Below are positions 22,586 through 44,893 of a DNA stretch of 53,346 nucleotides, piece by piece. The notes beneath the pieces were generated by a model, which was not told the origin of the DNA, did no database searches, and saw only the letters and a list, made by a program, of their open reading frames with translations. This DNA comes from a bacterium. Its GTDB lineage: Archaea > Thermoplasmatota > Thermoplasmata > Lutacidiplasmatales > UBA184. How positions within the stretch are numbered: position 1 is the stretch's first letter; every line of letters begins with the position of its first letter. Location: the NCBI GenBank assembly GCA_027309555.1, contig DAIDCO010000006.1, forward strand, positions 1-53,346, in the 5' to 3' direction. Both the position numbers and the translations under genes were made by a program.

Positions 22586-22658
22586 CGAGGTGGATCGGGA
22601 TCAAGGAGCCGGGGAGTTCCGGGCCGAAGGCTTTTCTGTCCGACCGCGTGGGGCCCGT

Positions 22659-23444: not shown

Positions 23445-23482
23445 CCCGCGCCCGGCGCTCGAGGTGAAAGGAGCTATCAGCG

Positions 23483-26382: not shown

Positions 26383-26408
26383 AGCGACCGGCCGCTACGG
26401 GATGGATC

Positions 26409-29229: not shown

Positions 29230-29410
29230 GGCTCCGCCCGACTCGCGGGTCCCGCATAACGGGTTCGGCTGCGGGGCCTCTGAACCGATTCCGCGTAACA
29301 CCTTTCGGGCGGGGTCCGGCGCCCGGGGTGGGCCGGAATACATAACCCCCACTGAACTCTCTTATACCGGAACTCTTGTGCCGTGTCAAGGCTTCGCTCG
29401 CATCGACCCA

Positions 29411-29467: not shown

Positions 29468-30787
29468 ATGGGAACCAGTGAAGGAACCGCTTCGACCGGA
29501 TCGACCACGCCGAACGTCACTCCACCACCGAGGTCCGGGGGCCGCAGGACCATCGCGATCGCCGTCGCCGTGGTGCTCATCCTCGCGGCGCTCGGGGGGG
29601 GCTTGTACTACTACTACTCGACCCAGTCGAGCAGCAGCGGCAATTTCACCGTCGGCGTCGTCGGACCGATGACCGGAGCGCTCGGACCGGCCGGGACACC
29701 GTGGGCTGACGGAGTCACGGTCTGGGCGAATGCGATGAACGCCCAAGGAGGGGTCCACTTCAACGGCAAGACCCTGCACGTGGTCGTGAAGATGTACGAC
29801 GACCAGAGCAACCCGTCGCAGGCGATCCAGCTCGTGACGCAGGCGGTCAGTGGAGATCACGTCGACATGTTGATCACCGGCTTCCTGACGCCGGACACGG
29901 ACGCGATCGCGTCGACCGTTCAGACGCTGCAAGTGCCGATCGTCGCGAACGCGGCGGACGACCCCGAATTCCATGTGGGGAACCCGTACCTGTTCTCGAT
30001 CTACCCGACGACGGCCCAGCAGATGGAGTCGTTCGCGCAGTTCTTCGGCTCGTTGAGCCCGGTACCCACGAACGTCTCTACGCTTTACGCCAACGAGGAG
30101 GCCATGATCGGGCTGCTCGGGACCACCATTCACCTGATGGGTCCGAGTTACAACATCGTCTACAACCAGACGTACGACCCGACCACCCTCACGAGCTCGA
30201 GCGCGGACTCCTACCTGCTCTCGGCGAGCTCCCCGCACCCGAACATGCTGATGGTCTCGGACGAGTATCCGGGGAACGTCATCACCTGGATCCAGCAAAT
30301 GAAGTCGCTCAACGTCCGACCCTCGCTGATCTTCTCCGAGGACATGTGGGACGCCCCGTTCTTCATCAGCCAGCTCGGCGCCGACGCCAACGGCATCATC
30401 GGCCAGGACAACTGGGCCGCGAACATGACGAAGGCGGAGGCGAGCGGGAACTACGCGAACGCGACCTACTGGTATCAGCAGATGAACGCGACGTTCGGAC
30501 AGACGATCGCGATCAACCAGCTGCCGTACCAAGCGATCATGGCCGCGGAGGTACAGTTCGCCGCGATCCAGAAGGCCGGCGCCACTTCCGGCCCGGCGGT
30601 CGCGGCCGCGCTCGCGGGCCTGAACATGTCGACGGTCGATGGGCGCTTCGTGGCGAATCCGTTCGGGCTCGACATCGCCCGCGGTCCGTTCGTCATCCAG
30701 GTCCAGAACGGCCTACCGGAGATCATCGCTCCCGCCCAGTACGCGACGGCAACGCCGGTCTATCCGCTGCCGCCCACGTGGCCCTAG
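29468..30787 (+). CDS. ABC transporter substrate-binding protein, LivJ/type-I periplasmic-binding fold, TM-anchored
   Basis: ORF 28955..30787 trimmed to ATG 29468, with GGAGGAG 8 nt upstream. It has an N-terminal TM anchor (IAIAVAVVLILAALGG) and Ser-rich linker rather than a lipobox, then GVVGPMTGALGPAG typical of Leu/Ile/Val-binding-protein-like SBPs. Many sequons. Confidence 0.85.
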   Translation: MGTSEGTASTGSTTPNVTPPPRSGGRRTIAIAVAVVLILAALGGGLYYYYSTQSSSSGNFTVGVVGPMTGALGPAGTPWADGVTVWANAMNAQGGVHFNGKTLHVVVKMYDDQSNPSQAIQLVTQAVSGDHVDMLITGFLTPDTDAIASTVQTLQVPIVANAADDPEFHVGNPYLFSIYPTTAQQMESFAQFFGSLSPVPTNVSTLYANEEAMIGLLGTTIHLMGPSYNIVYNQTYDPTTLTSSSADSYLLSASSPHPNMLMVSDEYPGNVITWIQQMKSLNVRPSLIFSEDMWDAPFFISQLGADANGIIGQDNWAANMTKAEASGNYANATYWYQQMNATFGQTIAINQLPYQAIMAAEVQFAAIQKAGATSGPAVAAALAGLNMSTVDGRFVANPFGLDIARGPFVIQVQNGLPEIIAPAQYATATPVYPLPPTWP

Positions 30788-30848: not shown

Positions 30849-31739
30849 GTGGGGTTCAACCCTTTCCTGGTCGCGCTTTTCGGCGGGCTCGGCGTCGGCA
30901 GCCTCTACGTCGTCTTCGCGCTCGGCATGAACCTCCTCATCGGAGTCATGCGGGTGATCAACTTCACCCACGGCTACCTCATGCTGCTCGGTTCGTACCT
31001 GACCTACTTCCTGTGGGAGTGGTATGGCCTCAACCCGCTCCTGTCGCTCCTCATCGTGATGCCGGCTCTGTTCGCGGTCGGCGTCCTGTTCCATTTCATC
31101 ATGGTCCAGCCGGTGCTGAAGCGTCGTTCCTTCGAGGACACGACGCTGCTGCTCACGTTCGCGGGCCTCCTGATCATGGACAACCTCTTCGTGAAGTTCT
31201 GGACCGACAACCAGCGCCAGGTCCCCACGAGTTACTTCAACACGCCCGTGATCTTCTCGACCCCGTGGGGGGATGCGGTCCTCTCCCAGGTCGTCCTCAT
31301 TGGCGCCGGCCTCGCCGCCGCGGCGGTCATCGCGCTCGGTCTGTTCCTGCGGTACACGTGGACCGGGCGCGCGATGCGCGCGGCGAGCCAGGACCTCCTC
31401 GCGGCGCGGCTCCTCGGCATTCCCGCGACGCGCCTCTACGCGATCAGCTTCGGCATCTCGGGGCTGCTCGCCGGCATTGCGGGCGTCGTGGTCGCGATGG
31501 AGTTCCTATTTTACCCCGAGTTCGGGTTCAACTACCTGCTCAAGGCGTTCGGCGTGATCATGATGGGAGGCCTCGGCAGCCTCGTCGGGACGATCGCCGG
31601 TGGCCTCACGCTCGGGGTCGCGGAATCGATGACCGCGTGGGCGTACAACGGGGAGTATGGCACTTGGGCGAACGGGGCCGCGTACGTGGCGATCCTGGTG
31701 GCCCTCGCGATTCGCGCCCTCCTGGGGAAGTCCCGGTGA
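30849..31739 (+). CDS. ABC transporter permease, LivH-like
   Basis: ORF trimmed to GTG 30849, with AGGAGGG upstream. Motifs GMNLLIGVMRVINFTHG and GGLGSLVGTIAGG. Confidence 0.9.
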   Translation: MGFNPFLVALFGGLGVGSLYVVFALGMNLLIGVMRVINFTHGYLMLLGSYLTYFLWEWYGLNPLLSLLIVMPALFAVGVLFHFIMVQPVLKRRSFEDTTLLLTFAGLLIMDNLFVKFWTDNQRQVPTSYFNTPVIFSTPWGDAVLSQVVLIGAGLAAAAVIALGLFLRYTWTGRAMRAASQDLLAARLLGIPATRLYAISFGISGLLAGIAGVVVAMEFLFYPEFGFNYLLKAFGVIMMGGLGSLVGTIAGGLTLGVAESMTAWAYNGEYGTWANGAAYVAILVALAIRALLGKSR

Positions 31740-32725
31740 GCTCGACCCCGTCCGCCCTCCCGTCCGCGGCGGGGGCCCGCCGAGAGATCGCCCGGCTTCT
31801 CCGGTGGAATCACCGTCGGTCGATCCTTCTCGGAGTCTTCGGCCTGCTTGCGCTCCTCCCGATCGTGTACCCGAGCCCGTACACGATCGCCACCGTCCTG
31901 TTCTACATCCCGTGGTACCTCGCCATGGCCCAGAGTTGGAACATCTCGGGGGGGTACAGCGGCCAACTGAGCTTCGGGCACTGGGGATTGCTCGGAGTGG
32001 GGGCGTACACGAGCGCCATCCTCGCCGTGACCTACGGCTGGAACCTCCTGGCCGCGATGGCGATGGCCGCCGTCGTCACGTTCCTCTTGGGGCTCCTCAT
32101 CGGGTTCATCGGCGCGGCGCTCCGGGGGCCCTACTTCACCATCGCGACCCTGGCGAGCGCCGCGCTCATGCAGCTGATCCTCCTCAACTGGAAATCGCTG
32201 ACCCTCGGCTCGCTCGGCTTTCCGATCTTTTTCATTATCGTTCCGCCGACGGACCTCTACTACGGTGCGCTGGCGCTCGGGGCGGTCGCGACCGCGATGG
32301 TCTACCTCATCTCCCGCAGCCGGATCGGCCTCGCGTTCCAAGCGATCCGCGAGAACGAGGACGTCGCGACCGCCACGGGCATCTACGCGCGGGGCTACAA
32401 GGCGCTCGCCTTCGGCCTCAGCGCGTCGATCATGGGTCCGGTGGGAGGGCTCTACGCCTTCGCGTCGCACTACATCGACCCGACGTCCGCCTTCAATCTG
32501 CTCTACAACCTCCAGATCATCCTGATGGTCGTGGTCGGAGGGCGGGGCAAGGTCCTCGGTCCGCTCGTCGCGGCCGTCCTCTTCGCCTGGGTCTTCGAGG
32601 TCGCGTTGACGAGCTTCAACGTCTACAACTACCTCCTCACCGGCGTCGTCATCTTCGTCGCGGTCCTGCTCATCCCCCGGGGCATCTTCGGGTTCCGAGG
32701 CATGCCGAAGCTCCTTCAGTTCTGA
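31736..32725 (+). CDS. ABC transporter permease, LivM-like
   Basis: GTG 31736 overlaps the LivH-like stop (GTGA). Motifs GGYSGQLSFGH and VVGGRGKVLGPL. Confidence 0.9.
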   Translation: MSSTPSALPSAAGARREIARLLRWNHRRSILLGVFGLLALLPIVYPSPYTIATVLFYIPWYLAMAQSWNISGGYSGQLSFGHWGLLGVGAYTSAILAVTYGWNLLAAMAMAAVVTFLLGLLIGFIGAALRGPYFTIATLASAALMQLILLNWKSLTLGSLGFPIFFIIVPPTDLYYGALALGAVATAMVYLISRSRIGLAFQAIRENEDVATATGIYARGYKALAFGLSASIMGPVGGLYAFASHYIDPTSAFNLLYNLQIILMVVVGGRGKVLGPLVAAVLFAWVFEVALTSFNVYNYLLTGVVIFVAVLLIPRGIFGFRGMPKLLQF

Positions 32726-32774: not shown

Positions 32775-33539
32775 CTACATCCCGAGGAATGCCCGCCGGA
32801 TTTCGGGATGGTCGAGGAGCTCTCGGGCGGACCCCTGGTCGACGATTCGTCCTTGGGAGAGCACGTAGGCCCGGTCAGCGATCTGGAGGATCTGGCGGAC
32901 GTTCTGCTCCACCGCGAACACGGTCACGCCCCGGTCCGCGAGCGAACGGAGCGTCTGGAAGACCCGCGTGACGACCTGGGGGGCGAGGCCCAGCGACGGC
33001 TCGTCGACCACAAGGAGGCGCGGGCGGGCCATGAGCGCGCGTCCGATCGCAAGCATCTGCGCCTCCCCCCCCGAGAGGGTCTTTGCCGACTGCCGCGCGC
33101 GTTCCCGCAGGATCGGGAACATCGCGCAGACCTCTTCGTACGTCTCCTCGAAACGGACCCGTGCCGGCCGGAGATAGGCGCCGAGGGCGAGGTTGTCCCG
33201 GACGCTCATGTTGGGGAACACGTGCCGCCCCTCGGGGACGAGGGAGATACCGGTCGCGACGATCGACTCGGGAGAACGGCCCGTCAGCTTCCGTTCCCCG
33301 AGGTACGTGATCCCGCTCGAGGTCGGGATCAGCCCCGTGATCGCCCGTAGCAGTGTCGTCTTGCCCGCTCCATTCGGGCCCACGAGCGCCGTGAACCGGT
33401 GTTCGGGAATCTCGAGACTGACCTCGTGGAGGACATCCATACGGTCGTAGCCCGCGCGCAGGGACTCGATTCGCAGCGAGCCCGCACCGGCGGCCGCATC
33501 GCCCGGCGCGGCGGGTTGCGCGGAAGGAGCGGAGGACAT
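32775..33539 (-). CDS. ABC transporter ATP-binding protein, LivF-like
   Basis: The C-terminal 254 aa of composite ORF 32775..34367. Walker A GPNGAGKTT, VPEGRHVFPNMSV, signature LSGGEAQML, Walker B LLVVDEPS. Confidence 0.9.
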   Translation of the reverse strand: MSSAPSAQPAAPGDAAAGAGSLRIESLRAGYDRMDVLHEVSLEIPEHRFTALVGPNGAGKTTLLRAITGLIPTSSGITYLGERKLTGRSPESIVATGISLVPEGRHVFPNMSVRDNLALGAYLRPARVRFEETYEEVCAMFPILRERARQSAKTLSGGEAQMLAIGRALMARPRLLVVDEPSLGLAPQVVTRVFQTLRSLADRGVTVFAVEQNVRQILQIADRAYVLSQGRIVDQGSARELLDHPEIRRAFLGM

Positions 33540-33571
33540 GCGGAGACCGCCGGCGGGAACGCTCCGGTAGA

Positions 33572-34198
33572 TTAAGCGTTCGTCCGCGGGGCGAGGGAGG
33601 CGAGAAGCTCGGAGGAGCTCACGACCGCCCCCACGGTGTCCGCGAGGTTGCGGAGCGCGGCGCGGTGGAGCTCTTCGTCGATCCCGGCGACCGCGTCCCG
33701 CACGATCACGACGTCGAGGTCCCGGGCAAAGGCGTCCCGGGCGGTCGCGTCGACGCAGACGTGCGAAAGGACCCCCGTCAGGACGACGGAACGGACGCCT
33801 GCTCCCTCGAGCCGGTCCGCGAGGTCGGTACCGAAGAAGCCGGAGTACCGGCTCTTGTAGACCACGGGCTCCTCGGCGGTCGGCGTGAGTTCTCGGACGA
33901 TCTCGGTCTCGGCGGAACCGGGCGTGAAGAACGGCGCGGAGCGGGTCGAGTACGCCCGAGGGAGCACGTGGTGGAGGCGCGCCGGATAGTCCGAGCCGTC
34001 CGCCCGATAGCGGTAGGCGGTGTAGAGGCGCGGCCACCCCGCGGCCCGGAACCGCTCGCGCAGGCGCTGGATGGTCGGGACGAGGTCCCCCGCGTCGCGC
34101 AGGCCCCGACCGTGTCGGGCGTACGCGCCGTCCGGGGCAACGAACCCAACCTGCATGTCCACGATCAAGAGCGCGGGGCGTTCCAGGTGGGCGAGCAT
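33572..34198 (-). CDS. isochorismatase-family cysteine hydrolase (Iso1)
   Basis: 208 aa with the catalytic D-K-C elements: LLIVDMQ, VVYKSRYSGFFGT, GVLSHVCVDATARDA. Confidence 0.85.
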   Translation of the reverse strand: MLAHLERPALLIVDMQVGFVAPDGAYARHGRGLRDAGDLVPTIQRLRERFRAAGWPRLYTAYRYRADGSDYPARLHHVLPRAYSTRSAPFFTPGSAETEIVRELTPTAEEPVVYKSRYSGFFGTDLADRLEGAGVRSVVLTGVLSHVCVDATARDAFARDLDVVIVRDAVAGIDEELHRAALRNLADTVGAVVSSSELLASLAPRTNA

Positions 34199-34220
34199 GG
34201 CGCGAGTATCGAGACGAGGG

Positions 34221-34227
34221 ATTTAAG
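34221..34227. promoter_or_regulatory. single shared TATA-like element ATTTAAG between divergent start codons 34198 (-) and 34255 (+)
   Basis: It lies 22 nt from the complement ATG and 27 nt from the + ATG. There is no other AT-rich element in the 56-nt gap. Confidence 0.5.
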
Positions 34228-34254
34228 CATCGAATGGCTGCCGAGGCGGTTTCC

Positions 34255-35457
34255 ATGAGCACGAGGGGCCGGCCGCTCGACGGGCTACGGGTCGTGGAGC
34301 TCGCCCAGGGGATCGCGGGACCGTACTGCGCGATGGTCCTCGCCGACCTCGGCGCGGACGTGATCAAGGTCGAGATTCCCCGGGTCGGCGACCTCGCCCG
34401 GGGCTGGGGACCGCCGTTCGCCTCGCCGCATAACTCGGCCTACTTCCTTTCGGTCAACCGCAACAAGCGCTCGGTCGAGCTCGACCTCAAGTCGCCGTAC
34501 GGTAAGGAGGCCCTGCGACGGCTGGTGACGGAGGCCGACGTGCTCGTCGAGAACTTCCGGCCCGGCACGATGGCCGACCTCGGCTTCGACGTCGCCACGC
34601 TTAGGACGCTGCGGCCGAACCTGCTCATCGCCTCCGTCACGGGATACGGGCCGGGGGGTCCGAGTCGCAACGACCCCTCGTTCGACCTCATCGCCCAGGC
34701 CCGGTCGGGGTTGATGAGCGTCACGGGCACGGTCGCCGGAGACCCGATCCGGGTCGGGATCGCCCTGTTCGACCTCGCGGCCGGCCTCTACGCCGCGATC
34801 GGGGTCCTGGTCCAGTTGCGCGAGCGCGACGCCGGACGCGCCACCGTGCCGGTGGAGGTGAACCTCCTCGATACCTCGGTGTCGATGCTGACGCATTGGC
34901 TGCCGATCCTGAGCCTCGAAGGCAAGGTCCCGCCGCCGAGCGGAACCGCGCACCCGCTGATCGTCCCCTATCAGGTCTTCCCCACCCGAGAGGGATTCGT
35001 GGCCCTCGGCGTGTCGACGGACGTCCTCTGGCACCGGTTCTGCAGCGCGCTCGGGCTCGGCGCGATCGAGAACGACCCGAAATTCTCGACGAACGCCGCC
35101 CGCGTCGCGCATCGGAGCGAGGTGCTCGCCTTCGTCCTTCCCGCCCTCGCCCAATGGACGGCGCCCGAGGCCGCCGCCGAGATGAGCCGGGCGGGGGTCC
35201 CCTGCGCGGTGGTCGCCCGGATCGAAGATCTGCCGCGCGACCCCCAGGTCGTTTTCAACCGGTCGATCGAGACAATGTCGGCGCCCCACGCAAGCTCGGT
35301 GATGGTCGGGGGCTCGCCGCTCCGTTCTCTCCTGCCCGAGGAGGAGTCGCTCGTGCGCCGGCCCGCCCCGGACCTTGGAGAGCACACCGAGGAGGTCCTG
35401 CGCGAGATCGGGCTGTGGCCGCCGGTCCGAACCCCGGCCCGTGAAGGGGGCCGATGA
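34255..35457 (+). CDS. family III CoA-transferase (CaiB/BaiF-like)
   Basis: Opens MSTRGRPLDGLRVVELAQGIAGPYCAMVLADLGADVIKVE. ATG 34255 is preferred over 34234 because it lies 27 nt after the ATTTAAG box. Confidence 0.9.
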   Translation: MSTRGRPLDGLRVVELAQGIAGPYCAMVLADLGADVIKVEIPRVGDLARGWGPPFASPHNSAYFLSVNRNKRSVELDLKSPYGKEALRRLVTEADVLVENFRPGTMADLGFDVATLRTLRPNLLIASVTGYGPGGPSRNDPSFDLIAQARSGLMSVTGTVAGDPIRVGIALFDLAAGLYAAIGVLVQLRERDAGRATVPVEVNLLDTSVSMLTHWLPILSLEGKVPPPSGTAHPLIVPYQVFPTREGFVALGVSTDVLWHRFCSALGLGAIENDPKFSTNAARVAHRSEVLAFVLPALAQWTAPEAAAEMSRAGVPCAVVARIEDLPRDPQVVFNRSIETMSAPHASSVMVGGSPLRSLLPEEESLVRRPAPDLGEHTEEVLREIGLWPPVRTPAREGGR

Positions 35458-36272
35458 AGGCGATCGACGTGGTCGCGAACCTTCGGAACGCCCACTACGT
35501 GAACGCCATCCGACCGTACATGGAGGAGGCGTGGAAGACGCTGCGCCAGGACATGGACCGCCTCATCATCGCCCCGGAACGAATGGTCGAGGAGATGGAC
35601 CGGGCCGGCATCGAGCGTGCGTTCCTCATCGCGGCCAAGGGCGAGGGCTGGGAGGTGCCGTACGAGGACGTGGCCGAAGTCGTCCGCGAGTACCCGGACA
35701 AGTTCTCGGCGCTGGCCGGCTTCAACCCGTTCCACGGCATGAAGGGCGTCGCGCGACTGGCCGAGGCGGTCGAGAAGCACGGCTTCATCGGGGCGCACGT
35801 CTACCCGCACTGGTTCCGGCGGGCGCCGAACGACGCGATCTACTACCCGTTCTATGCGAAGTGCGTCGAGCTCGACATTCCCGTCCAGATGCAGGTGGGC
35901 CACGCGACCCCGATGACGTACCTCCCGTCGGTCGCGCACCCGATCGCGCTCGAGGACATCGCGATCTACTTTCGCGAGCTACGGATCATCGGCATCCACA
36001 TGGGCTACCCGTGGACCGAGGAGATGATCTCGGTCGCCTATCGGTTCCCGAACATCTACATCGCCCCGGACGCCCACGCACCGAAGTACTGGGAGCCGCG
36101 ATTCGTCGACTACCTGCGGACTCGAGGGAAACGGAAGGTTCTCTTCGGTACGGACTACCCCATCGTCGGCTTCGAGCGGGCGATGGCCGAGCTCGCGGAC
36201 CATCGCCTTCCGGACGAGGTCCTCGAGCGGTTCCTGCGGGAGAACGCCCGGGAGGTCTACCGACTTCACTGA
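35454..36272 (+). CDS. amidohydrolase_2 (ACMSD/LigI/LigJ-like metal-dependent hydrolase/decarboxylase/hydratase)
   Basis: 272 aa with an ATGA overlap onto the CoA-transferase stop. TIM-barrel hydrolase pattern with HVYPHW, IGIHMGYPW and LFGTDYP. Confidence 0.8.
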   Translation: MKAIDVVANLRNAHYVNAIRPYMEEAWKTLRQDMDRLIIAPERMVEEMDRAGIERAFLIAAKGEGWEVPYEDVAEVVREYPDKFSALAGFNPFHGMKGVARLAEAVEKHGFIGAHVYPHWFRRAPNDAIYYPFYAKCVELDIPVQMQVGHATPMTYLPSVAHPIALEDIAIYFRELRIIGIHMGYPWTEEMISVAYRFPNIYIAPDAHAPKYWEPRFVDYLRTRGKRKVLFGTDYPIVGFERAMAELADHRLPDEVLERFLRENAREVYRLH

Positions 36273-36346
36273 GCGGGAGCGGCCTCCGGGGACGCACGCT
36301 GATAAACCCGGGTCGCCGTAGACCCGCGGAGCAACCCCGCGGAACT

Positions 36347-37243
36347 ATGAACGCAGCCGTACGACGTCCCTCGCTGGGCGCGCGCCTCGCGGCCGGACCC
36401 ATCGTCGTGGCCCCCGGTGCCTACGACGCCCTCTCGGCCCGGCTCGTCGAACGGGCCGGCTTTCCCGCGGTGTACGCGAGCGGTGCCGGCGCCTCCTACA
36501 GCCTCCTCGGTTCCCCCGACATCGGCCTGCTCTCGTTCGCCGAGATGCGGGACCAAGTCTCCCGGATCGCGGCCGCGGTGGGGATCCCGGTGATCGCGGA
36601 CGGCGACACCGGCCACGGCAATGCGCTCAACGTCCGGCGGACCGTCCGCGAGTTCGAGTCGGCCGGGGCGAGCGCGATCCAGCTCGAGGACCAGACGTTC
36701 CCCAAGCGATGCGGCCACCTGAGCGAGAAGACCGTCATCCCGACATCGGAGATGGTCGGGAAGCTCCGCGCGGCGGCGGACGCTCGGGCTTCCTCCGAGA
36801 CCCTCGTCATCGCGCGCACCGACGCGCTCGCTGTGGAAGGCGTGGATGCCGCGCTCGAGCGCTTGCGGGCGTACTCGGAGGCCGGGGCGGACGTGCTGTT
36901 CCTCGAGGCCCCTCCCGACGTCCCGACGATGCAGCGCGCCTGCGCCGAGCTCGGCCGGCCGATGATGGCGAACATGGTCGAGGGCGGGAAGACGCCGCTC
37001 CTCTCGGCGGCCGAGCTCGAGAAGATCGGATACCGACTCGTCATCTTTCCCGGCGCGGGCGCGCGGGTCGCCGCGTTCGCTCTGCGAGAGCTCTATACGA
37101 CGCTCGCCCGGGAGGGAACGACATCGTCCCTCCTCGACCGTATGCTGCTCTTCGACGAGCTCAACCGAGTCGTGGGCCTTCCCGAGCTCCGGGCGACGGG
37201 GGCGCGGTTCCAGGGGTCCTCCTCCACGTCGAGGCCGGAATGA
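36347..37243 (+). CDS. isocitrate lyase/PEP mutase-family C-C lyase (methylisocitrate / dimethylmalate lyase-like)
   Basis: ORF trimmed to ATG 36347. Motifs: DGDTGHGN, the lyase-type catalytic loop FPKRCGHLSEK with Cys, and IARTDA. Confidence 0.88.
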   Translation: MNAAVRRPSLGARLAAGPIVVAPGAYDALSARLVERAGFPAVYASGAGASYSLLGSPDIGLLSFAEMRDQVSRIAAAVGIPVIADGDTGHGNALNVRRTVREFESAGASAIQLEDQTFPKRCGHLSEKTVIPTSEMVGKLRAAADARASSETLVIARTDALAVEGVDAALERLRAYSEAGADVLFLEAPPDVPTMQRACAELGRPMMANMVEGGKTPLLSAAELEKIGYRLVIFPGAGARVAAFALRELYTTLAREGTTSSLLDRMLLFDELNRVVGLPELRATGARFQGSSSTSRPE

Positions 37244-38526
37244 GCCGCCCCCAGACGCAGATCGAACGCACCCTCTCGCTCCATGCGACCGAGGCGCCGG
37301 GTCGCCCGGTCGAACCCGAGGAGTTCGTCGAGGTCGAGGTCGATCGCCTCGTCCTGCTCGATATGGCCGCGACCCATCCGGAGTTCCTCGCCCACCTGCC
37401 ACGCCGCGTTCACCGCCCCGAGCGGGTCGCCTGGGTCTTCGACCACCTCGTCCCCGCGCCGACCGTCGAGCTCGCGTCGGGCCTCGTGAAGCTCCGCGAG
37501 CTGGCCGCACGCTGGGGCATCACCTCGGTCTTCGACATCGGCCGGGGCGGCATTTCGCACCCGCTCATGGCCGAGAAGGGCTGGGTCCGCCCGGGCGAGA
37601 TCCTCGCGAACACCGATTCGCACACCTGCGCCGCGGGCGCGCTCGGCTGCGCCGGCCGGGGGGTCGGCATGCTCGAGGTCATGAGCATCCTCTCGACCGG
37701 ACGCACCTGGTTCCGGGTCGGGGAAACGGTCCGTGCGAGCCTCTCCGGACACCTCGCACCGGGGGTCGCGGGGAAGGACGTCTTCCTTTCGCTGGCCGGG
37801 GAGTTCGGCGCGATCCCCGGCCGGAACATCGAGTTCGCCGGTGACGGGATCGCCGGACTTCCGATTCCCACGCGCCAGGCGATCGCGACGATGTGCGCGG
37901 AGATCAGCGCCGAGTTCGCCCTCTTCCCCCCCGACGCCCGCGCGCTCGACTACGTCCGCGCCCGCGTGCCGGCCGACGAACCCCTCGCCCCGGTCCGCGC
38001 CGACCCGGACGCGTCGTACGCCGCAGAGTGGCGGGTCGACCTCTCGGGGGTCGAGCCGCTCGTCGCGCTCCCGAACCGGGTCGCCCGGAACGTCCGGCTC
38101 GTCTCCGAGGTCGCGGGGGTGACCATCACGCGCGCGGTGGTCGGCTCGTGCGCGAACGGCACGATCGAGGACCTGGAAGCGGTCGCGAACGTGCTCCGCG
38201 GCCGCCGCGTGCATCCCGGCGTCGTTTTCACGGTGACCCCCACCACCTCCGACGTCATGGCGGAGGCCGCCCGTCGGGGGCTGATCGACACGATCGTCGC
38301 GGCGGGCGCGCTCGTCACGAGCCCGACGTGCGGCGCCTGCTTCGGGGGCCACATGGGGGTCCTCGGCGACGGGGAGGTCTGCGTGACGAGCACGACTCGC
38401 AATTTCCAAGGACGGATGGGCTCGCCGAACGCGAAGATCTACCTTGCATCGAGCGCGACCGTGGCCGCGAGCGCCGTCGCGGGTTGTCTCGCCGACCCGC
38501 GGGGACTCGAGGGGAAGCGCCCGTGA
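37240..38526 (+). CDS. aconitase-family dehydratase large subunit (LeuC/HacA/DmdA-like)
   Basis: ATG 37240 overlaps the lyase stop (ATGA). Motif NTDSHTC and Fe-S cysteines in GSCANG and SPTCGACFG. Confidence 0.88.
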   Translation: MSRPQTQIERTLSLHATEAPGRPVEPEEFVEVEVDRLVLLDMAATHPEFLAHLPRRVHRPERVAWVFDHLVPAPTVELASGLVKLRELAARWGITSVFDIGRGGISHPLMAEKGWVRPGEILANTDSHTCAAGALGCAGRGVGMLEVMSILSTGRTWFRVGETVRASLSGHLAPGVAGKDVFLSLAGEFGAIPGRNIEFAGDGIAGLPIPTRQAIATMCAEISAEFALFPPDARALDYVRARVPADEPLAPVRADPDASYAAEWRVDLSGVEPLVALPNRVARNVRLVSEVAGVTITRAVVGSCANGTIEDLEAVANVLRGRRVHPGVVFTVTPTTSDVMAEAARRGLIDTIVAAGALVTSPTCGACFGGHMGVLGDGEVCVTSTTRNFQGRMGSPNAKIYLASSATVAASAVAGCLADPRGLEGKRP

Positions 38527-39008
38527 AGCTCGTCGGCCGCGCCTGGGTCTTCGACGACGACATCAACACCGACCTCCTCTATCCCGCGGCCTGTTTCCGC
38601 CTCCCGGTGGAGGAGCGACCGGCGCTCACGATGAGCGCGAACCGGCCGGGGTGGTCGCGGGAGGTCCGCCCCGGCGACCTTCTCGTCGCGGGAACGAACT
38701 TCGGAACCGGATCCTCCCGACCCGCCGCGGACAACCTGAAGGCGCTCGGGGTCGCGGGCGTCGTCGCGGAGTCGATCAACGGCCTCTTCTTCCGCAATGC
38801 GATCAACACGGGACTCCCCGTCCTCGAGGCGCCGGGCGTGCGCGCGTTCGTACGCGAAGGCACCCGGGTCGAGATCGACCTCGACACCGGAGCGATCCGG
38901 TCGGAGGGACGGACCCTGAACGTGCGGCCGCTGCCCGGCTTTCTCGCCCGGATCCTCGCGGAGGGGGGGATCCTCCCCCGGCTCCGCAAGGAAGGCTATA
39001 TCGACTAG
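38523..39008 (+). CDS. aconitase-family dehydratase small subunit (LeuD/HacB/DmdB-like)
   Basis: GTG 38523 overlaps the large-subunit stop (GTGA). GTNFGTGSSRPAA occupies the position of the LeuD G-x-NFGCGSSRE-H-A loop but is diverged. Confidence 0.85.
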   Translation: MKLVGRAWVFDDDINTDLLYPAACFRLPVEERPALTMSANRPGWSREVRPGDLLVAGTNFGTGSSRPAADNLKALGVAGVVAESINGLFFRNAINTGLPVLEAPGVRAFVREGTRVEIDLDTGAIRSEGRTLNVRPLPGFLARILAEGGILPRLRKEGYID

Positions 39009-39037
39009 CGCGGTTCCGCCGCGTGCGAGGGATCCGG

Positions 39038-39730
39038 ATGCGGCATCCATGGGAATCGATGATGGACGGGCTCGATCGCGAGGTCGTCACGGCCGCCGGA
39101 TACGGAAAGGAGCGGCCGCTGGGAAAGGCCCCGGTCCTTCTCGTGATCGACGCGCAGTACAACTACGTCGGAGAGGACCTCCCGATCCTCGATTCGATTC
39201 GGAAGTTCCCGACGAGCGTCGGCCACGCGGCGTACGAGGCCTTGCCGCAGGTACTCGCCCTCGTCCGGGCCTTCCGGGAACGGAAGCGTCCGGTGATCTT
39301 CACGACCGTCGCTCCGAAGGAGGCGCTGCTCCCCTTCTCGATCAGCGGCCGCGTCCACGCCGACCGCAAGTCGGAAACGCTGGTCGCCGGCCACCGCGGC
39401 ACCGAGATCGTCGAGGCGCTGCGACCCGAGCCCGGCGAGGTCGTTATCGACAAGGCGTTCGCGAGCGCCTTCCTCGGGACCCCGCTCGCGACGATCCTCA
39501 CGCTGCAGCGGGCCGATACCGTGGTGGTCTGCGGCGGCACGACCAGCGGCTGCGTGCGCGGGACCGCGGTCGACGCGGCGGGTCTCGGGTACCATGTCGT
39601 GGTCGCCGAGGATGCGGTCTTCGACCGCATCACGCTCTCGCACGCCGCGAGCCTGCTCGACCTCTGGATGAAGTACGCGAACGTGTATCCCGCCGAGCGG
39701 GTCCTCGAGTGGGTCCGCTCGCTCCCATGA
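39038..39730 (+). CDS. isochorismatase-family cysteine hydrolase (Iso2; N-carbamoylsarcosine amidase / maleamate amidohydrolase-like)
   Basis: ORF trimmed to ATG 39038. Catalytic elements: LLVIDAQ, VIDKAFASAFLGT, CGGTTSGCVRGTAVDA. Confidence 0.85.
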   Translation: MRHPWESMMDGLDREVVTAAGYGKERPLGKAPVLLVIDAQYNYVGEDLPILDSIRKFPTSVGHAAYEALPQVLALVRAFRERKRPVIFTTVAPKEALLPFSISGRVHADRKSETLVAGHRGTEIVEALRPEPGEVVIDKAFASAFLGTPLATILTLQRADTVVVCGGTTSGCVRGTAVDAAGLGYHVVVAEDAVFDRITLSHAASLLDLWMKYANVYPAERVLEWVRSLP

Positions 39731-41112
39731 GCGACCTCCTCCTCAAGAACGCCCGCCTCGTTTTCCCGCACCGCGGGGTCGTGGACGGCGAGATCGGGAT
39801 CTCAGGCGGCCGCATCGACTCGGTCGGAAAGGACCTCGGGAGGGCCGACCACGAGATCGACCTTCACGGCGCGCTCGTCGGCCCCGGGATCGTCGACCCG
39901 CACACGCACCTCGGGATCTACCGTGCGGCCCACGAGGACGCCCGGACCGAATCCGAATGCGCGGTGCGCGGCGGCGTCACGACGATGGTGACCTACTGGC
40001 GCGTCGGGGAACCGTACACCGACGGGCTCGTGGCCTACGGACGCGCCTTCGGGGAGTTCCGCGAGCGGCTAGAGGGGCAGATGCACACCGACTACGCGGT
40101 CAACCTCGGCATGCTGACCCGCGCGCACCTCGGCGAGGTCCCCGACCTCGTCCACCGACAAGGCGTGACGACCCTCAAGTACTTCGCGCACTACGAGGGC
40201 CGCGCGGACATCGGCCACGACCTCGATACGGGGTACTTCTTCGCGCTCGCGGAAGAGGTCGCTCGCCTCTCCCCGGCGGTGCCGGCGATCCGGTTGAGCG
40301 TCCACAGCGAGGACCCCTACGTGGTCCGGGAGGCTACCGACCGGGAAAAGAAGGCCGGGGGAAACGACCTCGAGGCCTACCGTCGCGCCCGGCCCGAGCT
40401 CGCGGAAGCCATAGCGGTCGACCGCCTCGGCGAAGTGGCCCTCGCGACCCGGGCGCCGATGATCCTCCCGCACGTGAGCTCCGCCATCGGCTACGCCCGC
40501 GCGCACGAGTTCGTCGCGCGGGGCGCGGACCTGACGATCGAGACGAGCCTCCACTACCTCACGCTGACGACCGAGAGCCCGGCCGGGATCCTTGCGAAGG
40601 TGAATCCCGCGGTCCGACGGGCCGAGGACGTCGAGGCGCTCTGGTCGGCCGTCGCCGCCGGCGGGCTTGGTTGCATTGGAAGCGACCACGCCTCGAATCT
40701 CCGGCAAGAGAAGTCGGAGCTCTGGAGCGCGAAACCGGCGTTCGCGGGCACGGGTCTCCTGTTGCCGCTCCTCTTCGAGGAAGGGGTCGTGCGGCGCCGG
40801 CTCCTCTCGCCGGAATCACTCTGGGGGATCCTCGCCGAGAACAACGCGCGGGCCCATGGGCTCTTTCCCCGGAAGGGGGCCCTCGTCCCCGGCGCCGACG
40901 CCGACTTGGTGGTCCTGGGGAAGCTCTCGGAGCCGCGCCGTGTGACGGTCGAGTCGGTCCACTCGGCCAGCGACTACTCCCCGTACGAGGGCCGGGAGCT
41001 CCACCACGTCCCCACCCATACCTTCGTGCGGGGCGAGCTCGTGGCCGACGCGGAGGGGGTCCGTGGGCCAGGCCATGGGGCGTACCTCCACCGTCCGCTC
41101 GGCCTCGACTGA
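39727..41112 (+). CDS. cyclic amidohydrolase, dihydropyrimidinase/hydantoinase type (A3)
   Basis: ATG 39727 overlaps the Iso2 stop (ATGA). Metal-site elements: DPHTHLG, TTLKYF, LSVHSED, ILPHVSS, GSDHAS. Confidence 0.9.
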   Translation: MSDLLLKNARLVFPHRGVVDGEIGISGGRIDSVGKDLGRADHEIDLHGALVGPGIVDPHTHLGIYRAAHEDARTESECAVRGGVTTMVTYWRVGEPYTDGLVAYGRAFGEFRERLEGQMHTDYAVNLGMLTRAHLGEVPDLVHRQGVTTLKYFAHYEGRADIGHDLDTGYFFALAEEVARLSPAVPAIRLSVHSEDPYVVREATDREKKAGGNDLEAYRRARPELAEAIAVDRLGEVALATRAPMILPHVSSAIGYARAHEFVARGADLTIETSLHYLTLTTESPAGILAKVNPAVRRAEDVEALWSAVAAGGLGCIGSDHASNLRQEKSELWSAKPAFAGTGLLLPLLFEEGVVRRRLLSPESLWGILAENNARAHGLFPRKGALVPGADADLVVLGKLSEPRRVTVESVHSASDYSPYEGRELHHVPTHTFVRGELVADAEGVRGPGHGAYLHRPLGLD

Positions 41113-41133
41113 GCTCGGGCGGCCCGGGGGACC

Positions 41134-42513
41134 CTACGCCGCGCGGGCGGGAACGAACTGCCCGCGCCCGGCGAGGTCCGGCACCTCGCCCGGGAAGACC
41201 CCTTCGGCGACGGTGACCCCGCGGCTCACGGTCCGGACCGGGACGCCCGTGAGCTCCCAGCCTTCGAACATCGTGAACTCGCTGTGATGGTGCAGCCGGT
41301 CGTTCCGGATCGTCGTCGTCGCCTTCGGGTCGACCAGCACGAAGTCGGCGTCCGCCCCGAGCTGTAGGACGCCCTTCCGGGGATAGTAGCCGAACCGGCG
41401 GGCCGGACCCTCGGCGAGGAGGTAGAGCAGTCGATCCCAGTCGAGGCGCCCGGCAAACGCCTCCCGGAGCAGTACGGGGTACATCGTCTCGCTGCCGGGG
41501 AAGCCGGGCGGGATCGAGAAGATGTCCGCCGCGCCGGGGGCCTTCTCCGCGCTCGGGGCCGCGTGGTCGGAAGCGAGGAAGTCCACGGTGCCGTCCCGGA
41601 CCCCGGCCCACATCGCGTCGACCTCGGCGCGGCTGCGGAGCGGTGGGTTGACCTTCGCGTAGGGACCCCGATCGCGGTAGGCCGACGTGTCGAAGAAGAG
41701 GTAATGCGGGCACGTCTCGACCGAGAGGTCGGCCCCGGCGGCGCGCGCGGCGCGGACGGTGGGGAGCGTGAACCCGCTGCTCAGGTGGACGATGTGTACG
41801 GCCGCGCCGGCGGCGCGCCCGAGGCGAGCGACGCGACCGACCGCGTCGTCTTCGGCGACGGTCGGTCGGGAGTCGGTGTAGACGTCGGGCGTCGTCCGCC
41901 CGGCCTCTTTCAGCCGGCGGGTTGCCTCCGCGACGATCGAGGGGTTCTCCGCGTGGACTTCGAGGGGGGCGCCGGTCCCGGCGAGCCGCTCGGCGACCGC
42001 AAGGATCGTCGCGTCGTCGCACGCGGTGTACTCTCCGACGGGGTTCCACCCCAGGTACACCTTCACGCCGGCGACCCCGGCGCGGACGAGCGCCGGGATC
42101 TCCGCGAGGTTCCCGGCGCAGCCACCGCCATGCACCCCGAAATCCACGACCGAGCTCGCCCGGCCGAGGGCGACCTTCGCCTCGAGCGACGGGAGCGTGA
42201 GCGTGGGAGGGCAGTGCTCGGGGGTCGACGCGGCCTGCTCGACGAACGTCGTAACTCCCCCCGACGCGCAGGCCCGGCTCCCCGTGCCGATGTCCGTGCG
42301 GTCGGGGCGCCCGTAGGTGAAGTGGGTGTGGGTGTCGACGGCCCCCGGCAAGAGCAGAGCGCCGCGGGCATCGATCGTGCGGTCCGCGACGGGGAGGTGG
42401 GCATCCGTACAGATCCGAACGACGCGACCCGCTTCGACCGCGATCCCGGCGGAGACCCACTCCCCCCGCCACCGTAGGCGGGCGGAGCGGACCGTGAGGT
42501 CGACGGGGCTCAC
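41134..42513 (-). CDS. cyclic amidohydrolase, allantoinase/dihydroorotase/L-hydantoinase type (A4)
   Basis: ORF 41134..42666 trimmed to GTG 42513, which overlaps the upstream stop (GTGA). Metal-site elements: DTHTHFT, AGVKVY, LEVHAEN, HIVHLSS, ASDHAA. Confidence 0.88.
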   Translation of the reverse strand: MSPVDLTVRSARLRWRGEWVSAGIAVEAGRVVRICTDAHLPVADRTIDARGALLLPGAVDTHTHFTYGRPDRTDIGTGSRACASGGVTTFVEQAASTPEHCPPTLTLPSLEAKVALGRASSVVDFGVHGGGCAGNLAEIPALVRAGVAGVKVYLGWNPVGEYTACDDATILAVAERLAGTGAPLEVHAENPSIVAEATRRLKEAGRTTPDVYTDSRPTVAEDDAVGRVARLGRAAGAAVHIVHLSSGFTLPTVRAARAAGADLSVETCPHYLFFDTSAYRDRGPYAKVNPPLRSRAEVDAMWAGVRDGTVDFLASDHAAPSAEKAPGAADIFSIPPGFPGSETMYPVLLREAFAGRLDWDRLLYLLAEGPARRFGYYPRKGVLQLGADADFVLVDPKATTTIRNDRLHHHSEFTMFEGWELTGVPVRTVSRGVTVAEGVFPGEVPDLAGRGQFVPARAA

Positions 42514-43349
42514 GCCGGCGCTCCCCCGAGACGCTCGACGACCGTGCCGCCGGGGTTCGTCCACCCCGAACGGAAGTAGAACGCTGACTCGATGTGACGC
42601 GGGGCGAGAGGCAGGAGCTCCTCGTTTTCGGCAGGGTAGAGCTTCAGTTCGCCGCTCCCCTTCCAAACGTCGGTGACGACCCGGCCGGTCGTTTGGACTC
42701 GGACGAGCTCATGGACCGAAGGGGGGCGGCGCGGGTCGACGTTCGGAAGGTAACGGATCCCGAAGTACGTCCCGAGGCGGGGCAATTCCTCGGCCCGCGA
42801 GGCGCTCTCGAGCGTCACCCCCGCGAAAAGGATCCGCTCTCCGTGGCGAGAGAGCACCCCTGCGAGGCGGGCGCCGGGCCCGATCGGGGGCAATTTCGGG
42901 TGCAGAGGGTGAAGCCGCGTCATGCGGACCTGCGCGACCTTCTTCGGCCAGCCGTTGAGCCAGCCCCGCGCCATCGACCAGTCGTGGTCGGTCCAGATGA
43001 AGGGCAAGTAGACGCCGGCCTCCCCCCGGTAGCGGCAGGAGACGGTGACGATCGCTTCGCCGTACTGGGTGGCCTCGGGCTGGCGGTAGGCGAGGTCCGG
43101 GTCGCCGTCGCTGACCGAGATGACCTCCGTGACGCGGGCGGTCACCCGGTCGGGCTCGGGCCCCGGCTCGAGGGGAGGCGGGAGGACCCGGCGCACGGCT
43201 TCGGGGTCGGCCCGGTAGACGACCTGGATCACATCGGAGGCAAAGTGCCACGGCGGGTGGTCGACGATCCCGCTCTTCCCTTCGGGTCCGAACGGGGGCG
43301 TATACCCCGGAGCGGTCAACGGAGGGGTCCCGGGAGGGGATGCGTTCAT
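42510..43349 (-). CDS. acetoacetate decarboxylase (ADC)-family protein
   Basis: The C-terminal 279 aa of composite ORF 42510..44399. The N-terminal pattern PPWHFASDVIQVVYRADPEAVRRVLPPPLEP and the overall size fit PF06314-type proteins, judged from memory. Confidence 0.7.
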   Translation of the reverse strand: MNASPPGTPPLTAPGYTPPFGPEGKSGIVDHPPWHFASDVIQVVYRADPEAVRRVLPPPLEPGPEPDRVTARVTEVISVSDGDPDLAYRQPEATQYGEAIVTVSCRYRGEAGVYLPFIWTDHDWSMARGWLNGWPKKVAQVRMTRLHPLHPKLPPIGPGARLAGVLSRHGERILFAGVTLESASRAEELPRLGTYFGIRYLPNVDPRRPPSVHELVRVQTTGRVVTDVWKGSGELKLYPAENEELLPLAPRHIESAFYFRSGWTNPGGTVVERLGGAPA

Positions 43350-43360
43350 GGAACTCGCCG

Positions 43361-44104
43361 CTAGGCGGGCGCTCCGGCCGCCGGTTCCGCCCGGCCGAGG
43401 TAGGCTTCGACCACGGCCGGGTCCTGGCTCGCCGCACGCACGTCGCCATTGAACAGGAGCTGGCCGTGGTGGAGGACGAGGACCCGGTCGATCAGCTGGA
43501 AGAGCGACTCTACCACGTGCTCGGTGACGAGCAACGTGATCCCGCGGGCGTGGATGCGTCGGATGATCTCGACGATCTCGCTCAGCTCGGCGGGGTTGAG
43601 ACCCGCCATGACCTCGTCCAGCAGCAAGAGCTCGGGAGAGGCCGCGAGCGCCCGGGCGACCTCGAGCCGCTTGCGCCCCGCGAGGGTGAGCTCGTTCGAC
43701 CGGGCCGAGGCGCGGTCCGCGAGGTCGGTGACCGCGAGGACCTCGTCGACCGTGAGCGGCGGCAGACCGGCCCGCGGGCGGCGGGCCCCGAAGAGCGCAC
43801 CGACACGGACGTTCTGCTCCACCGTGAGGTCCGGGAACGCCTGGGCGAGCTGGAAGGTCTGAACGAGGCCACGGTGGCAACGGCGGTGCGGCGCCCAACG
43901 GGTGACGTCGGTTTCCTGGAATACGATCCGTCCGCTCGTAGGAGGGATCATGCCGGACAAGAGCGCGAACAGCGTGGTCTTCCCGGCCCCGTTCGGACCG
44001 ATCAGCCCGAGGATCTCCCCTTCGGCAATGTCGAAGGAGACGTTCGAGACGGCCATCACTCCCGCGAACCGCTTGGTGAGGCCTTCCACCGTGAGCAACG
44101 TCAC
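43361..44104 (-). CDS. ABC transporter ATP-binding protein, LivG-like
   Basis: 247 aa. Motifs: LLTVEGLTKRFAGVMAVSNVSF, Walker A GPNGAGKTT, LLLLDEVMAGL. GTG 44104 lies 25 nt after a CCTTTAAG box. Confidence 0.9.
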   Translation of the reverse strand: MTLLTVEGLTKRFAGVMAVSNVSFDIAEGEILGLIGPNGAGKTTLFALLSGMIPPTSGRIVFQETDVTRWAPHRRCHRGLVQTFQLAQAFPDLTVEQNVRVGALFGARRPRAGLPPLTVDEVLAVTDLADRASARSNELTLAGRKRLEVARALAASPELLLLDEVMAGLNPAELSEIVEIIRRIHARGITLLVTEHVVESLFQLIDRVLVLHHGQLLFNGDVRAASQDPAVVEAYLGRAEPAAGAPA

Positions 44105-44129
44105 GAAGGCCGTCGAACGCGATGCGCTC

Positions 44130-44824: not shown

Positions 44825-44865
44825 GCCGAGCGCCGCGATTCGTTCCATTTGTTAATGAATCAGTG

Positions 44866-44872
44866 TATAAAT
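44866..44872 (+). promoter_or_regulatory. TATA box TATAAAT, 21 nt upstream of regulator ATG 44894
   Basis: A canonical-looking TATA in a GC-rich context. It supports trimming the regulator start. Confidence 0.5.
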
Positions 44873-44893
44873 GACCCCGCCGTCCCCTTCCCG

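Follow-up and report, generated by a model that had tools for sequence, protein, structure and literature searches.

The window analysed here is a stretch of 53,346 nt of archaeal DNA (Thermoplasmata; contig DAIDCO010000006.1, assembly GCA_027309555.1) with a G+C content of 70%. Its subject is an operon of seven genes on the + strand between positions 34255 and 41112, which may encode the hydrolytic catabolism of a carboxylated nitrogen ring. GC3 frame plots, the list of open reading frames and independent gene calls, the latter made on the identical NCBI contig DAIDCL010000008.1 (GCA_027309605.1), all agreed on the gene structure. The first gene (34255-35457) codes for a family III CoA-transferase (CaiB/BaiF/Frc type, 400 aa; PF02515, full length) and the second (35454-36272) for a TIM-barrel protein of the Amidohydro_2 family (COG2159 type, 272 aa; PF04909, 133 bits). 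They are followed by a C-C lyase of the isocitrate lyase (ICL)/phosphoenolpyruvate (PEP) mutase superfamily (36347-37243, 298 aa; PF13714, 170 bits; PEP_mutase/ICL 170/54). The next two genes encode the large subunit of an aconitase-family hydratase (archaeal LeuC/HacA type, 37240-38526, 428 aa; Aconitase PF00330, 264 bits) and its small subunit (LeuD/DmdB family, 38523-39008, 161 aa; Aconitase_C PF00694, 38 bits; TIGR02087). The last two encode an isochorismatase-fold cysteine amidohydrolase (39038-39730, 230 aa; PF00857, 119 bits) and a cyclic amidohydrolase of the hydantoinase/allantoinase/dihydropyrimidinase/dihydroorotase superfamily (39727-41112, 461 aa; Amidohydro_1/3). The family assignments which a first-pass annotation had made for these seven proteins were confirmed by Pfam and NCBIfam. 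All seven scored below every NCBIfam equivalog cutoff.

Four of the junctions are start/stop overlaps of 4 nt, read in the sequence at 35454 (ATGA), 37240 (ATGA), 38523 (GTGA) and 39727 (ATGA), to the base where they had been annotated. The remaining two are gaps of 74 nt (Amidohydro_2/lyase) and 29 nt (LeuD/amidase). The operon is predicted to consist of three translationally coupled blocks, namely CoA-transferase and Amidohydro_2 protein, lyase with LeuC and LeuD, and isochorismatase-type amidase with cyclic amidohydrolase. Upstream of the first gene, the sole AT-rich element is GATTTAAGCA (34220-34229, + strand), about 26-31 nt before the first ATG. AT-rich stretches are rare here, with a single 8-mer of at least seven A/T (at 33568) in the region 33500-41200. 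The position of GATTTAAGCA suggests a candidate archaeal TATA box with a short or absent leader. A tRNA scan of the whole window detected none. The matching NCBI contig is 47,740 nt long, and Logan assemblies of SRR9320197, SRR9320198 and SRR9320199 hold identical operon fragments.

Relatives of the operon were sought in one scan with a LeuC-like query over one genome per species, a pattern-based approach that misses many relatives. All LeuC relatives above 80% identity came from metagenome-assembled genomes (MAGs) of Thermoplasmata archaea (loci L006-L011), and the next matches reached at most 57%, which places the host among uncultured, high-GC Thermoplasmata archaea. Synteny was evaluated by tblastn of 21 proteins against 80 fetched loci, the proteins being those of the island of about 22 kb (22.5-44.1 kb), rich in amidohydrolase and transport genes, inside which the operon sits. 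Neither this island nor the archaeal nature of the host had been recognised in the first-pass annotation. In the six other Thermoplasmata MAG species the operon order is kept with 77-93% amino acid identity, so that the chained operon of the first-pass annotation is borne out by coordinates and by conservation alike. Beyond the operon, the order from an upstream MmgE/PrpD gene to a downstream ABC ATPase gene is kept in L006, L007, L009 and L010 (64-94% identity), and the shorter L008 and L011 are colinear with the island as far as they extend. The junctions also recur in all six: 4-nt overlaps link CoA-transferase to Amidohydro_2, lyase to LeuC, LeuC to LeuD and amidase to ring hydrolase, and the other two are gaps of 44-80 and 26-36 nt. 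With dN/dS values of 0.06-0.17 for each gene, calculated against two of the related species, all seven genes are under purifying selection.

A second kind of arrangement was reached by tracing LeuC relatives with 52-56% identity to their contigs. In GCA_046703545.1 and GCA_046705445.1 a rearranged cluster starts with Amidohydro_1-LeuC-LeuD; the lyase and Amidohydro_2 genes lie on the opposite strand and are followed by genes for an MFS transporter, a CoA_transf_3 protein and a PF01425 amidase. The encoded proteins are the best matches of those of the window operon, with identities of 34% for the ring hydrolase, 54-56% for LeuC, 51-52% for LeuD, 46-48% for the lyase, 49-51% for the Amidohydro_2 protein and 38-39% for the CoA-transferase. 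Here the place of the isochorismatase amidase is taken by an amidase-signature enzyme, and that of the ABC transporter by the MFS protein. Two further contigs keep Amidohydro_1-LeuC-LeuD, the first together with a lyase and a PF04199 cyclase/formamidase, the other with two isochorismatases and an Opp-type ABC system. Amidase and transporter appear to undergo non-orthologous displacement around a constant core. This constancy of the core, with the amidase fold and the transporter exchanged, speaks more strongly than any other observation for a single pathway of ring opening, deamidation, hydration and C-C cleavage that involves all seven genes.

The cyclic amidohydrolase, which would open the ring, carries a full binuclear-metal ligand set (H59, H61, K151, H193, H249 and D320), located by inspection and motif position; we take these residues to be the metal ligands from what is known of the family. 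Its NCBIfam matches were full-length and all below cutoff (ErtD, 208.5 vs 600; allantoinase, 193.8 vs 357.85; dihydropyrimidinase, 184), and the match to the solved L-hydantoinase 1gkr reached 154 bits. The enzyme thus appears about equidistant from L-hydantoinase, allantoinase, dihydropyrimidinase and ErtD. An enamidase-type ring opener had been suggested earlier, a proposal that found no backing, as no entry named 'enamidase' occurs among the 60 best solved relatives.

The amidase of the operon displays the Asp-Lys-Cys triad D38, K139 and C172 within conserved motifs. Its fold had been likened to that of N-carbamoylsarcosine amidase and NicF, and its best solved relatives are indeed these (N-carbamoylsarcosine amidase, 111 bits; 4l07/4l08, 104 bits; 3ot4/3uao, NicF, 70 bits). 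Structure 3uao is NicF, and the Asp-Lys-Cys triad of the family has been described (PMC5806882). Judged by these relatives, the enzyme could hydrolyse either a carbamoyl group or a primary amide. An isochorismatase-fold Asp-Lys-Cys amidase directly after a ring-opening hydrolase is also the arrangement of the hydantoinase and N-carbamoylsarcosine amidase of creatinine/N-methylhydantoin degradation, and of the NicF/Ami systems. However, the window amidase reaches only about 100-110 bits, the ring hydrolase is a metal-dependent Amidohydro_1 enzyme and not an ATP-dependent HyuAB, and those systems have no counterpart of the downstream hydratase and lyase.

The juxtaposition of a lyase and a two-subunit hydratase of the aconitase family, pointed out in the first-pass annotation, was confirmed. 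In LeuC the cluster cysteines C304, C364 and C367 are present. The protein passes only the broad model NF001614 (aconitase/isopropylmalate dehydratase large subunit family, 414 bits vs 385), and its best solved match is that of Methanocaldococcus jannaschii (4kp1/4nqy, 278 bits). LeuD passes the subfamily model TIGR02087 (LeuD/DmdB) with 139.1 bits against a cutoff of 108.95. The equivalog models of LeuC and LeuD failed with less than 55% of their cutoffs (TIGR02083, 334.8 vs 610.65; TIGR00170, 153.8 vs 560; TIGR02084, 102 vs 245.85), and the Hac equivalogs also failed for the pair.

In LeuD the conserved motif GTNFGTGSSRPAA spans residues 57-69, with GTGSSRPAA at 61-69, and the specificity loop AACFR is found at residues 22-26. 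After alignment with 3vba, 2pkp and 1v7l, loop and motif were compared over 78 small subunits. Canonical archaeal small subunits of LeuD/HacB type (M. jannaschii, P. horikoshii, Bathyarchaeia) combine GCGSSRE(H/Q)A with a longer loop, YL-x-x. All small subunits whose LeuC is at least 43% identical to that of the window read G-x-GS-x-R-(P/A/N/W), mostly with P, and their loop is one residue shorter. The GSSRP-type motif marks a large, separate subfamily of LeuD. Its divergence had been taken earlier as an argument against a housekeeping isopropylmalate isomerase. The divergence is real, but the exclusion of a housekeeping enzyme does not follow from it. In Thermogymnomonas acidicola a biosynthetic LeuC-LeuD-Iso_dh-HMGL-like cluster lies beside the his operon; its LeuC (51% identity) belongs to the sister group of the window clade in the neighbour-joining (NJ) tree, and its LeuD reads GLGSSRPAA. 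The motif was rejected on this ground as a mark of a non-housekeeping LeuD, and caution is needed with the GSSRP variant, which fails to separate catabolic from biosynthetic enzymes. The HMGL-like synthase of the T. acidicola cluster (locus L086, 8001-12435) carries a C-terminal AsnC_trans_reg (RAM) domain, presumably as in lysine-regulated homocitrate synthases. Given this domain, the 'LeuCD' of T. acidicola may be a homoaconitase or a dual-purpose enzyme.

The specificity loop reads HICYT in T. acidicola vs AACFR in the window clade. Arg26 of the window LeuD aligns with Arg26 of M. jannaschii HacB, which we take to contact homoaconitate at its distal carboxylate, and many bacterial LeuD proteins encoded beside a lyase also carry x-A-(F/M/L)-R in the loop. 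As a separator of catabolic from biosynthetic context the loop was retained only in part, since the catabolic-looking rearranged clusters carry HICYT.

For the lyase, the residues KRCGH (120-124), DGD (85-87) and ED (114-115) were aligned with 1zlp, 3fa3 and 1mum. The KRCGH catalytic loop and the acidic metal ligands place the enzyme in the C-C lyase branch and not among the PEP mutases, a grouping that the first-pass annotation had named as an outcome that would speak against its reading. The best solved relatives are the petal death protein (1zlp, 211 bits), the dimethylmalate lyase of Aspergillus niger (3fa3, 193 bits, second best) and PrpB (188-192 bits); the fungal enzyme was the only dimethylmalate lyase that entered this comparison. 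The top NCBIfam model was prpB, which failed (TIGR02317, 284.5 vs 354.4; NF008455, 238 vs 353). The segment ANMVEGGKTP (208-217) matches the petal death protein, where PrpB has ANITEFGATP. In IFPGAGAR (233-240), Pro and Arg align with Pro236 and Arg241 of E. coli PrpB; the Arg is absent from dimethylmalate lyase and petal death protein. The lyase is in this respect a mosaic of a petal-death-protein-like segment and a PrpB-like Arg, compatible with a di- or tricarboxylate substrate, and the lyases of the rearranged archaeal clusters carry both signatures. A specific pull toward dimethylmalate lyase is not apparent from these comparisons.

The CoA-transferase matches PF02515 over profile positions 1-366 (367.8 bits). 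Its best NCBIfam model is succinate-glutarate CoA-transferase (310 vs 750 cutoff) and its best structural match SUGCT (9br6, 252 bits); the nearest types are SUGCT, YfdE and Frc. The coupled Amidohydro_2 protein lacks the N-terminal HxH metal ligands and shows IDVVAN at residues 4-9, a region conserved as IDVV(A/C)NL in the window and rearranged cluster types. Its sole good match among solved structures is the uncharacterised BB4693 (3irs), and its unnamed homologues number more than 3800, many of them about 50% identical in bacteria. Their context was surveyed by counting neighbours within 2.5 kb in 46 loci from metagenomes, each at least 6 kb long. A CoA ligase or CoA-transferase gene was present in 27 of the 46 (AMP ligase in 19, family III CoA-transferase in 8). 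Other neighbours were isochorismatase (12), TctC binding proteins (12), MmgE/PrpD (7) and cyclase (4), and a homologue of the lyase occurred in 4. On three traced contigs the homologue adjoins genes for AMP-dependent ligase, acyl-CoA dehydrogenase, hydantoinase A/B, isochorismatase or Amidohydro_1. Homologues are often found beside ring-amide hydrolases of three different folds. From this neighbourhood, the substrate of the Amidohydro_2 protein would be a CoA thioester that the neighbouring enzyme produces, although we know of no member of the family that acts on a CoA ester.

The pairing recalls CaiB/CaiD, FldA/FldBC and Frc/Oxc, in which a CoA-transferase is likewise coupled to a second enzyme, and the family of the window partner repeatedly adjoins CoA-activating genes. 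It differs in that this partner is an HxH-less Amidohydro_2 protein, and the likeness is drawn from gene neighbourhood only. A plasmid of Comamonas endophytica (NZ_CP106882; locus L179, 362907-369830) carries TctC-Amidohydro_2-AMP ligase-acyl-CoA dehydrogenase-alpha/beta hydrolase-isochorismatase and two polysaccharide-deacetylase-family genes, which together appear to be a bacterial equivalent of the CoA module and the amide-hydrolysis module. A second cultured carrier of such an Amidohydro_2-type context is Roseomonas haemaphysalidis p546-2.

The hydratase-lyase pair also recurs in bacteria and is even mobile there. In about 20 bacterial loci LeuC-LeuD is located near a homologue of the window lyase (42-50% identity), and amidohydrolases were found in none of these loci. 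In Acidimicrobiia and Mycobacterium the lyase/LeuC-LeuD genes are flanked by MmgE/PrpD and CoA-transferases, and on the plasmid pLGM of Ancylobacter pratisalsi the lyase-LeuC-LeuD trio stands alone between transposons. The pair is best described as a portable carbon-skeleton module, to which archaeal lineages would have added an amidohydrolase front end.

Taken as one pathway, the operon would serve to degrade, by hydrolysis, a cyclic amide, imide or ureide that bears a carboxyl group, after which hydratase and lyase cleave an unsaturated di- or tricarboxylate, with a CoA sub-module attached; we give this proposal about an even chance of being correct. The binuclear-metal amidohydrolase would open a C-N bond of the ring, and the Asp-Lys-Cys amidase would then release ammonia from the amide or carbamoyl group that is left. 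The Fe-S hydratase is predicted to hydrate the double bond of a di- or tricarboxylate with cis unsaturation, of the maleate or aconitate type. From the 2-hydroxy acid so formed, retro-aldol cleavage by the ICL-type lyase would yield a carboxylic acid together with glyoxylate or pyruvate as the 2-oxo acid. The family III transferase would form the CoA thioester of a pathway acid, which the HxH-less Amidohydro_2 protein might transform in the manner of CaiB/CaiD or FldA/FldBC; this step can be placed either before ring opening or after cleavage. We infer the reaction order, the substrate class and each activity from gene structure, conservation, families, catalytic residues and co-occurrence. 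In favour of the proposal, the catalytic residues are intact in lyase, LeuC, isochorismatase protein and cyclic amidohydrolase, and the operon has genes for an uptake ABC system and for paralogous amidohydrolases on its flanks.

Several points weigh against this proposal. As no enzyme reaches an equivalog cutoff, no activity can be transferred. Internal promoters could lie in the 74-nt and 29-nt gaps. The ureide route would lead to an amino acid, which an aconitase-type hydratase could not use, and the solved relatives of the amidase fit this route (carbamoyl) as well as the imide route (primary amide). The LeuD proteins of the rearranged archaeal clusters share the HICYT loop with the biosynthetic-context LeuD of T. 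acidicola, so that a housekeeping or dual role of the hydratase is possible.

The imide route, in turn, would hand the hydratase a direct substrate. Its closest parallels are cyclic imide metabolism (imidase, half-amidase, maleate hydratase), for which a scheme is reportedly known in Blastobacter, and the imidase and amidase steps of fungal nicotinate catabolism; the shared logic is hydrolysis of the ring and then of the amide, followed by LeuCD-like hydration of a maleate-type acid. The enzyme families differ from those of the window, HxnM resembling polysaccharide deacetylases and HxnN belonging to another type of amidase; moreover, D-malate dehydrogenase and not an ICL-type lyase ends the known route, and a CoA module is absent. 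Release of ring nitrogen by a cyclic imidase and then an amidase is established and documented (PMC9304392), which gives the first two steps of the imide route a precedent. A narrower version of the proposal can be put forward tentatively, and is itself rather unlikely: an undescribed, purely hydrolytic and non-oxidative archaeal removal of nitrogen from a carboxylated cyclic imide, followed by the hydratase/lyase split. In that case the Amidohydro_2 protein would provide its superfamily's first demonstrated case of activity on a CoA thioester. Speculative candidate substrates are methyl- and carboxyethyl-maleimides from tetrapyrroles (hematinic acid) and citrazinate-type dihydroxypyridine carboxylates, the full hydrolysis of which would yield aconitate-like acids. 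Speculatively, hematinic acid would ultimately give pyruvate and glutarate, which would suit a glutarate-type CoA-transferase.

Among the other explanations, a tricarboxylate module resembling the methylcitrate cycle survives best, and is nevertheless unlikely. It would combine MmgE/PrpD and the CoA-transferase with the hydratase and lyase, dehydration of PrpD type being followed by rehydration of LeuCD type and cleavage of PrpB type to succinate and a 2-oxo acid, and would leave the amidohydrolases to separate nitrogen scavenging. The final steps of the methylcitrate cycle (PrpD, aconitase, PrpB) share with the window a lyase with the catalytic loop whose best model is prpB, with the equivalents of Pro236 and Arg241 kept, an adjacent aconitase-family hydratase, and MmgE/PrpD genes, which here lie inside the island. 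The alignment of LeuD Arg26 with HacB Arg26 would suit a tricarboxylate, if the distal-carboxylate role is presumed, and PrpD-LeuC-LeuD-lyase sets occur in Oscillospiraceae, Acidimicrobiia and S. cattleyicolor. However, no citrate or methylcitrate synthase is encoded in the window, the lyase stays below the prpB cutoff and has the petal-death-like ANMVEGGKTP, and the hydratase is of LeuCD and not of AcnB/AcnD type. Moreover, the tightest conserved neighbour of archaeal LeuCD is the cyclic amidohydrolase and not PrpD, and amidase and ring hydrolase are translationally coupled within the same operon.

It is doubtful that the seven genes are co-transcribed for convenience while serving two or three unrelated pathways. 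The two intergenic gaps, one of them with an AT-containing GATAAAC element, and the separate occurrence of the modules in bacteria would fit such an operon; the colinearity of the whole block across six species and the re-association of all seven functions in an independently arranged cluster with other amidase and transporter families speak against it.

More improbable is a role of lyase and hydratase as Dml and DmdAB in the last steps of a nicotinate fermentation of the Eubacterium barkeri type (dimethylmaleate to 2,3-dimethylmalate to propionate and pyruvate), with enamidase- and NicF-like amidohydrolases, as the first-pass annotation had favoured. The likeness is one of organisation and chemistry, with the gene of a two-subunit aconitase-family hydratase beside that of an ICL/PEP-mutase-family C-C lyase, and hydration followed by retro-aldol cleavage. 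The match of the small subunit to the LeuD/DmdB model, the catalytic Cys loop of the lyase, the second rank of the A. niger enzyme and the relationship of the amidase to NicF all agree with it. From the Dml/DmdAB comparison the enzyme pair and its catabolic character stand; for the lyase as a dimethylmalate lyase it gives no particular reason, PrpB and petal death protein being about as near to the enzyme as the fungal dimethylmalate lyase and its Arg being of the PrpB type. The fermentation itself found no support: no Mo-hydroxylase, 6-hydroxynicotinate reductase, B12 mutase, methylitaconate (PrpF-type) isomerase or 2-(hydroxymethyl)glutarate enzyme was detected, either with Pfam and NCBIfam across the whole window of 53 kb or among the genes called in the syntenic loci, and the ring hydrolase has no enamidase among its 60 best solved relatives. 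The host is an archaeon, and the operon carries in addition genes for a CoA-transferase, an Amidohydro_2 protein, a cyclic amidohydrolase and a cysteine amidase, the first two of which this reading leaves unexplained.

Least probable of all is that LeuC/LeuD is the housekeeping isopropylmalate or homoaconitate isomerase of the organism embedded among catabolic genes, as the nearest NJ outgroup, the Thermoplasmata LeuCD of the LeuC-LeuD-Iso_dh-HMGL-like cluster with its shared GSSRP, would allow, but which is opposed by the lack of leuA/leuB-type genes in the window, the 4-nt overlap with the upstream lyase gene, the change from HICYT to AACFR only in the window clade, the lyase-hydratase adjacency in about 20 unrelated bacterial loci and the low equivalog scores.

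Literature searches on imidase, half-amidase and maleate hydratase, on combinations of the enzymes and on Thermoplasmata together with them brought up no description of the cluster, which represents a new, uncharacterised combination of known enzyme families in an archaeon. If the proposed hydrolytic pathway is true, uncultured Thermoplasmata of peat and wetland would possess a compact, conserved route that mineralises ring-bound nitrogen and delivers the carbon to central metabolism. Its parts reach beyond archaea, with the lyase-LeuC-LeuD trio in the bacterial loci mentioned above and Amidohydro_2 homologues by the thousands in soil and freshwater bacteria. Assignment of the substrate would annotate many proteins that are now mis-annotated as 'amidohydrolase family protein' or '3-isopropylmalate dehydratase'.

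The genes next to the operon code for uptake and for further amidohydrolases. Pfam and gene calls identified a Liv-type ABC system, with binding protein (29468-30787, +), permeases (30849-31739 and 31736-32725, +) and ATPase (32775-33539, -), which is colinear with the operon in L006-L011. Between this system and the operon, and divergent from the latter, lies the gene of a second isochorismatase-family amidohydrolase (33572-34198, -; PF00857, 152 bits). This protein is BiuH/RutB-like below the cutoffs, 29% identical to the operon amidase and kept in L006-L011. Downstream, a convergent unit of three genes on the - strand (41134-44107) is kept in L006, L007, L009 and L010. It encodes a fourth cyclic amidohydrolase (41134-42513), an ADC/MppR-like protein (42510-43319), whose gene shares a GTGA overlap at 42510-42513 with the start of the former, and an ABC ATPase (43361-44107). 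The best model of the ADC/MppR-like protein, a member of the acetoacetate decarboxylase family, is MppR of enduracididine biosynthesis (150 bits vs 380 cutoff). The ABC system is split: its two ATPase genes, on the - strand, are separated by 10 kb with the operon between them, and the genes for binding protein and permeases are on the + strand.

The upstream part of the island (22560-29343), as defined by Pfam and gene calls, starts with an SDR gene. A MmgE/PrpD gene (23483-24958) follows, which is coupled by an ATGA overlap to the gene of a cyclic amidohydrolase paralogue (24955-26382), a coupling for which we know of no precedent. Then come another cyclic amidohydrolase paralogue (26409-27788, +) and a second MmgE/PrpD gene (27760-29343, -); these two convergent genes overlap by 29 nt at their 3' ends (27760-27788). 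Within the flank reach of the fetched loci only PrpD2 of this part was seen to be conserved, and its link to the operon function is suggested by proximity only. Counting the copy of the operon, four cyclic amidohydrolase paralogues lie within 18 kb, with pairwise identities of 32-36% and none at an equivalog cutoff.

The rest of the window holds cell-envelope glycosylation genes, a 2-oxoacid dehydrogenase complex and unrelated genes. Directly downstream of the island, a winged-helix regulator is encoded (44849-45556), whose best match is SufR, the cyanobacterial Fe-S regulator (104 bits, below the cutoff of 179). The 2-oxoacid dehydrogenase complex is located on the - strand (E2, 52424-53281; E1, 51366-52427; E3, 49917-51359) and is followed by a lipoate-protein ligase gene (49259-49933). 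A similar E1/E2 set adjoins the Amidohydro_1-LeuC-LeuD cluster of locus L093.

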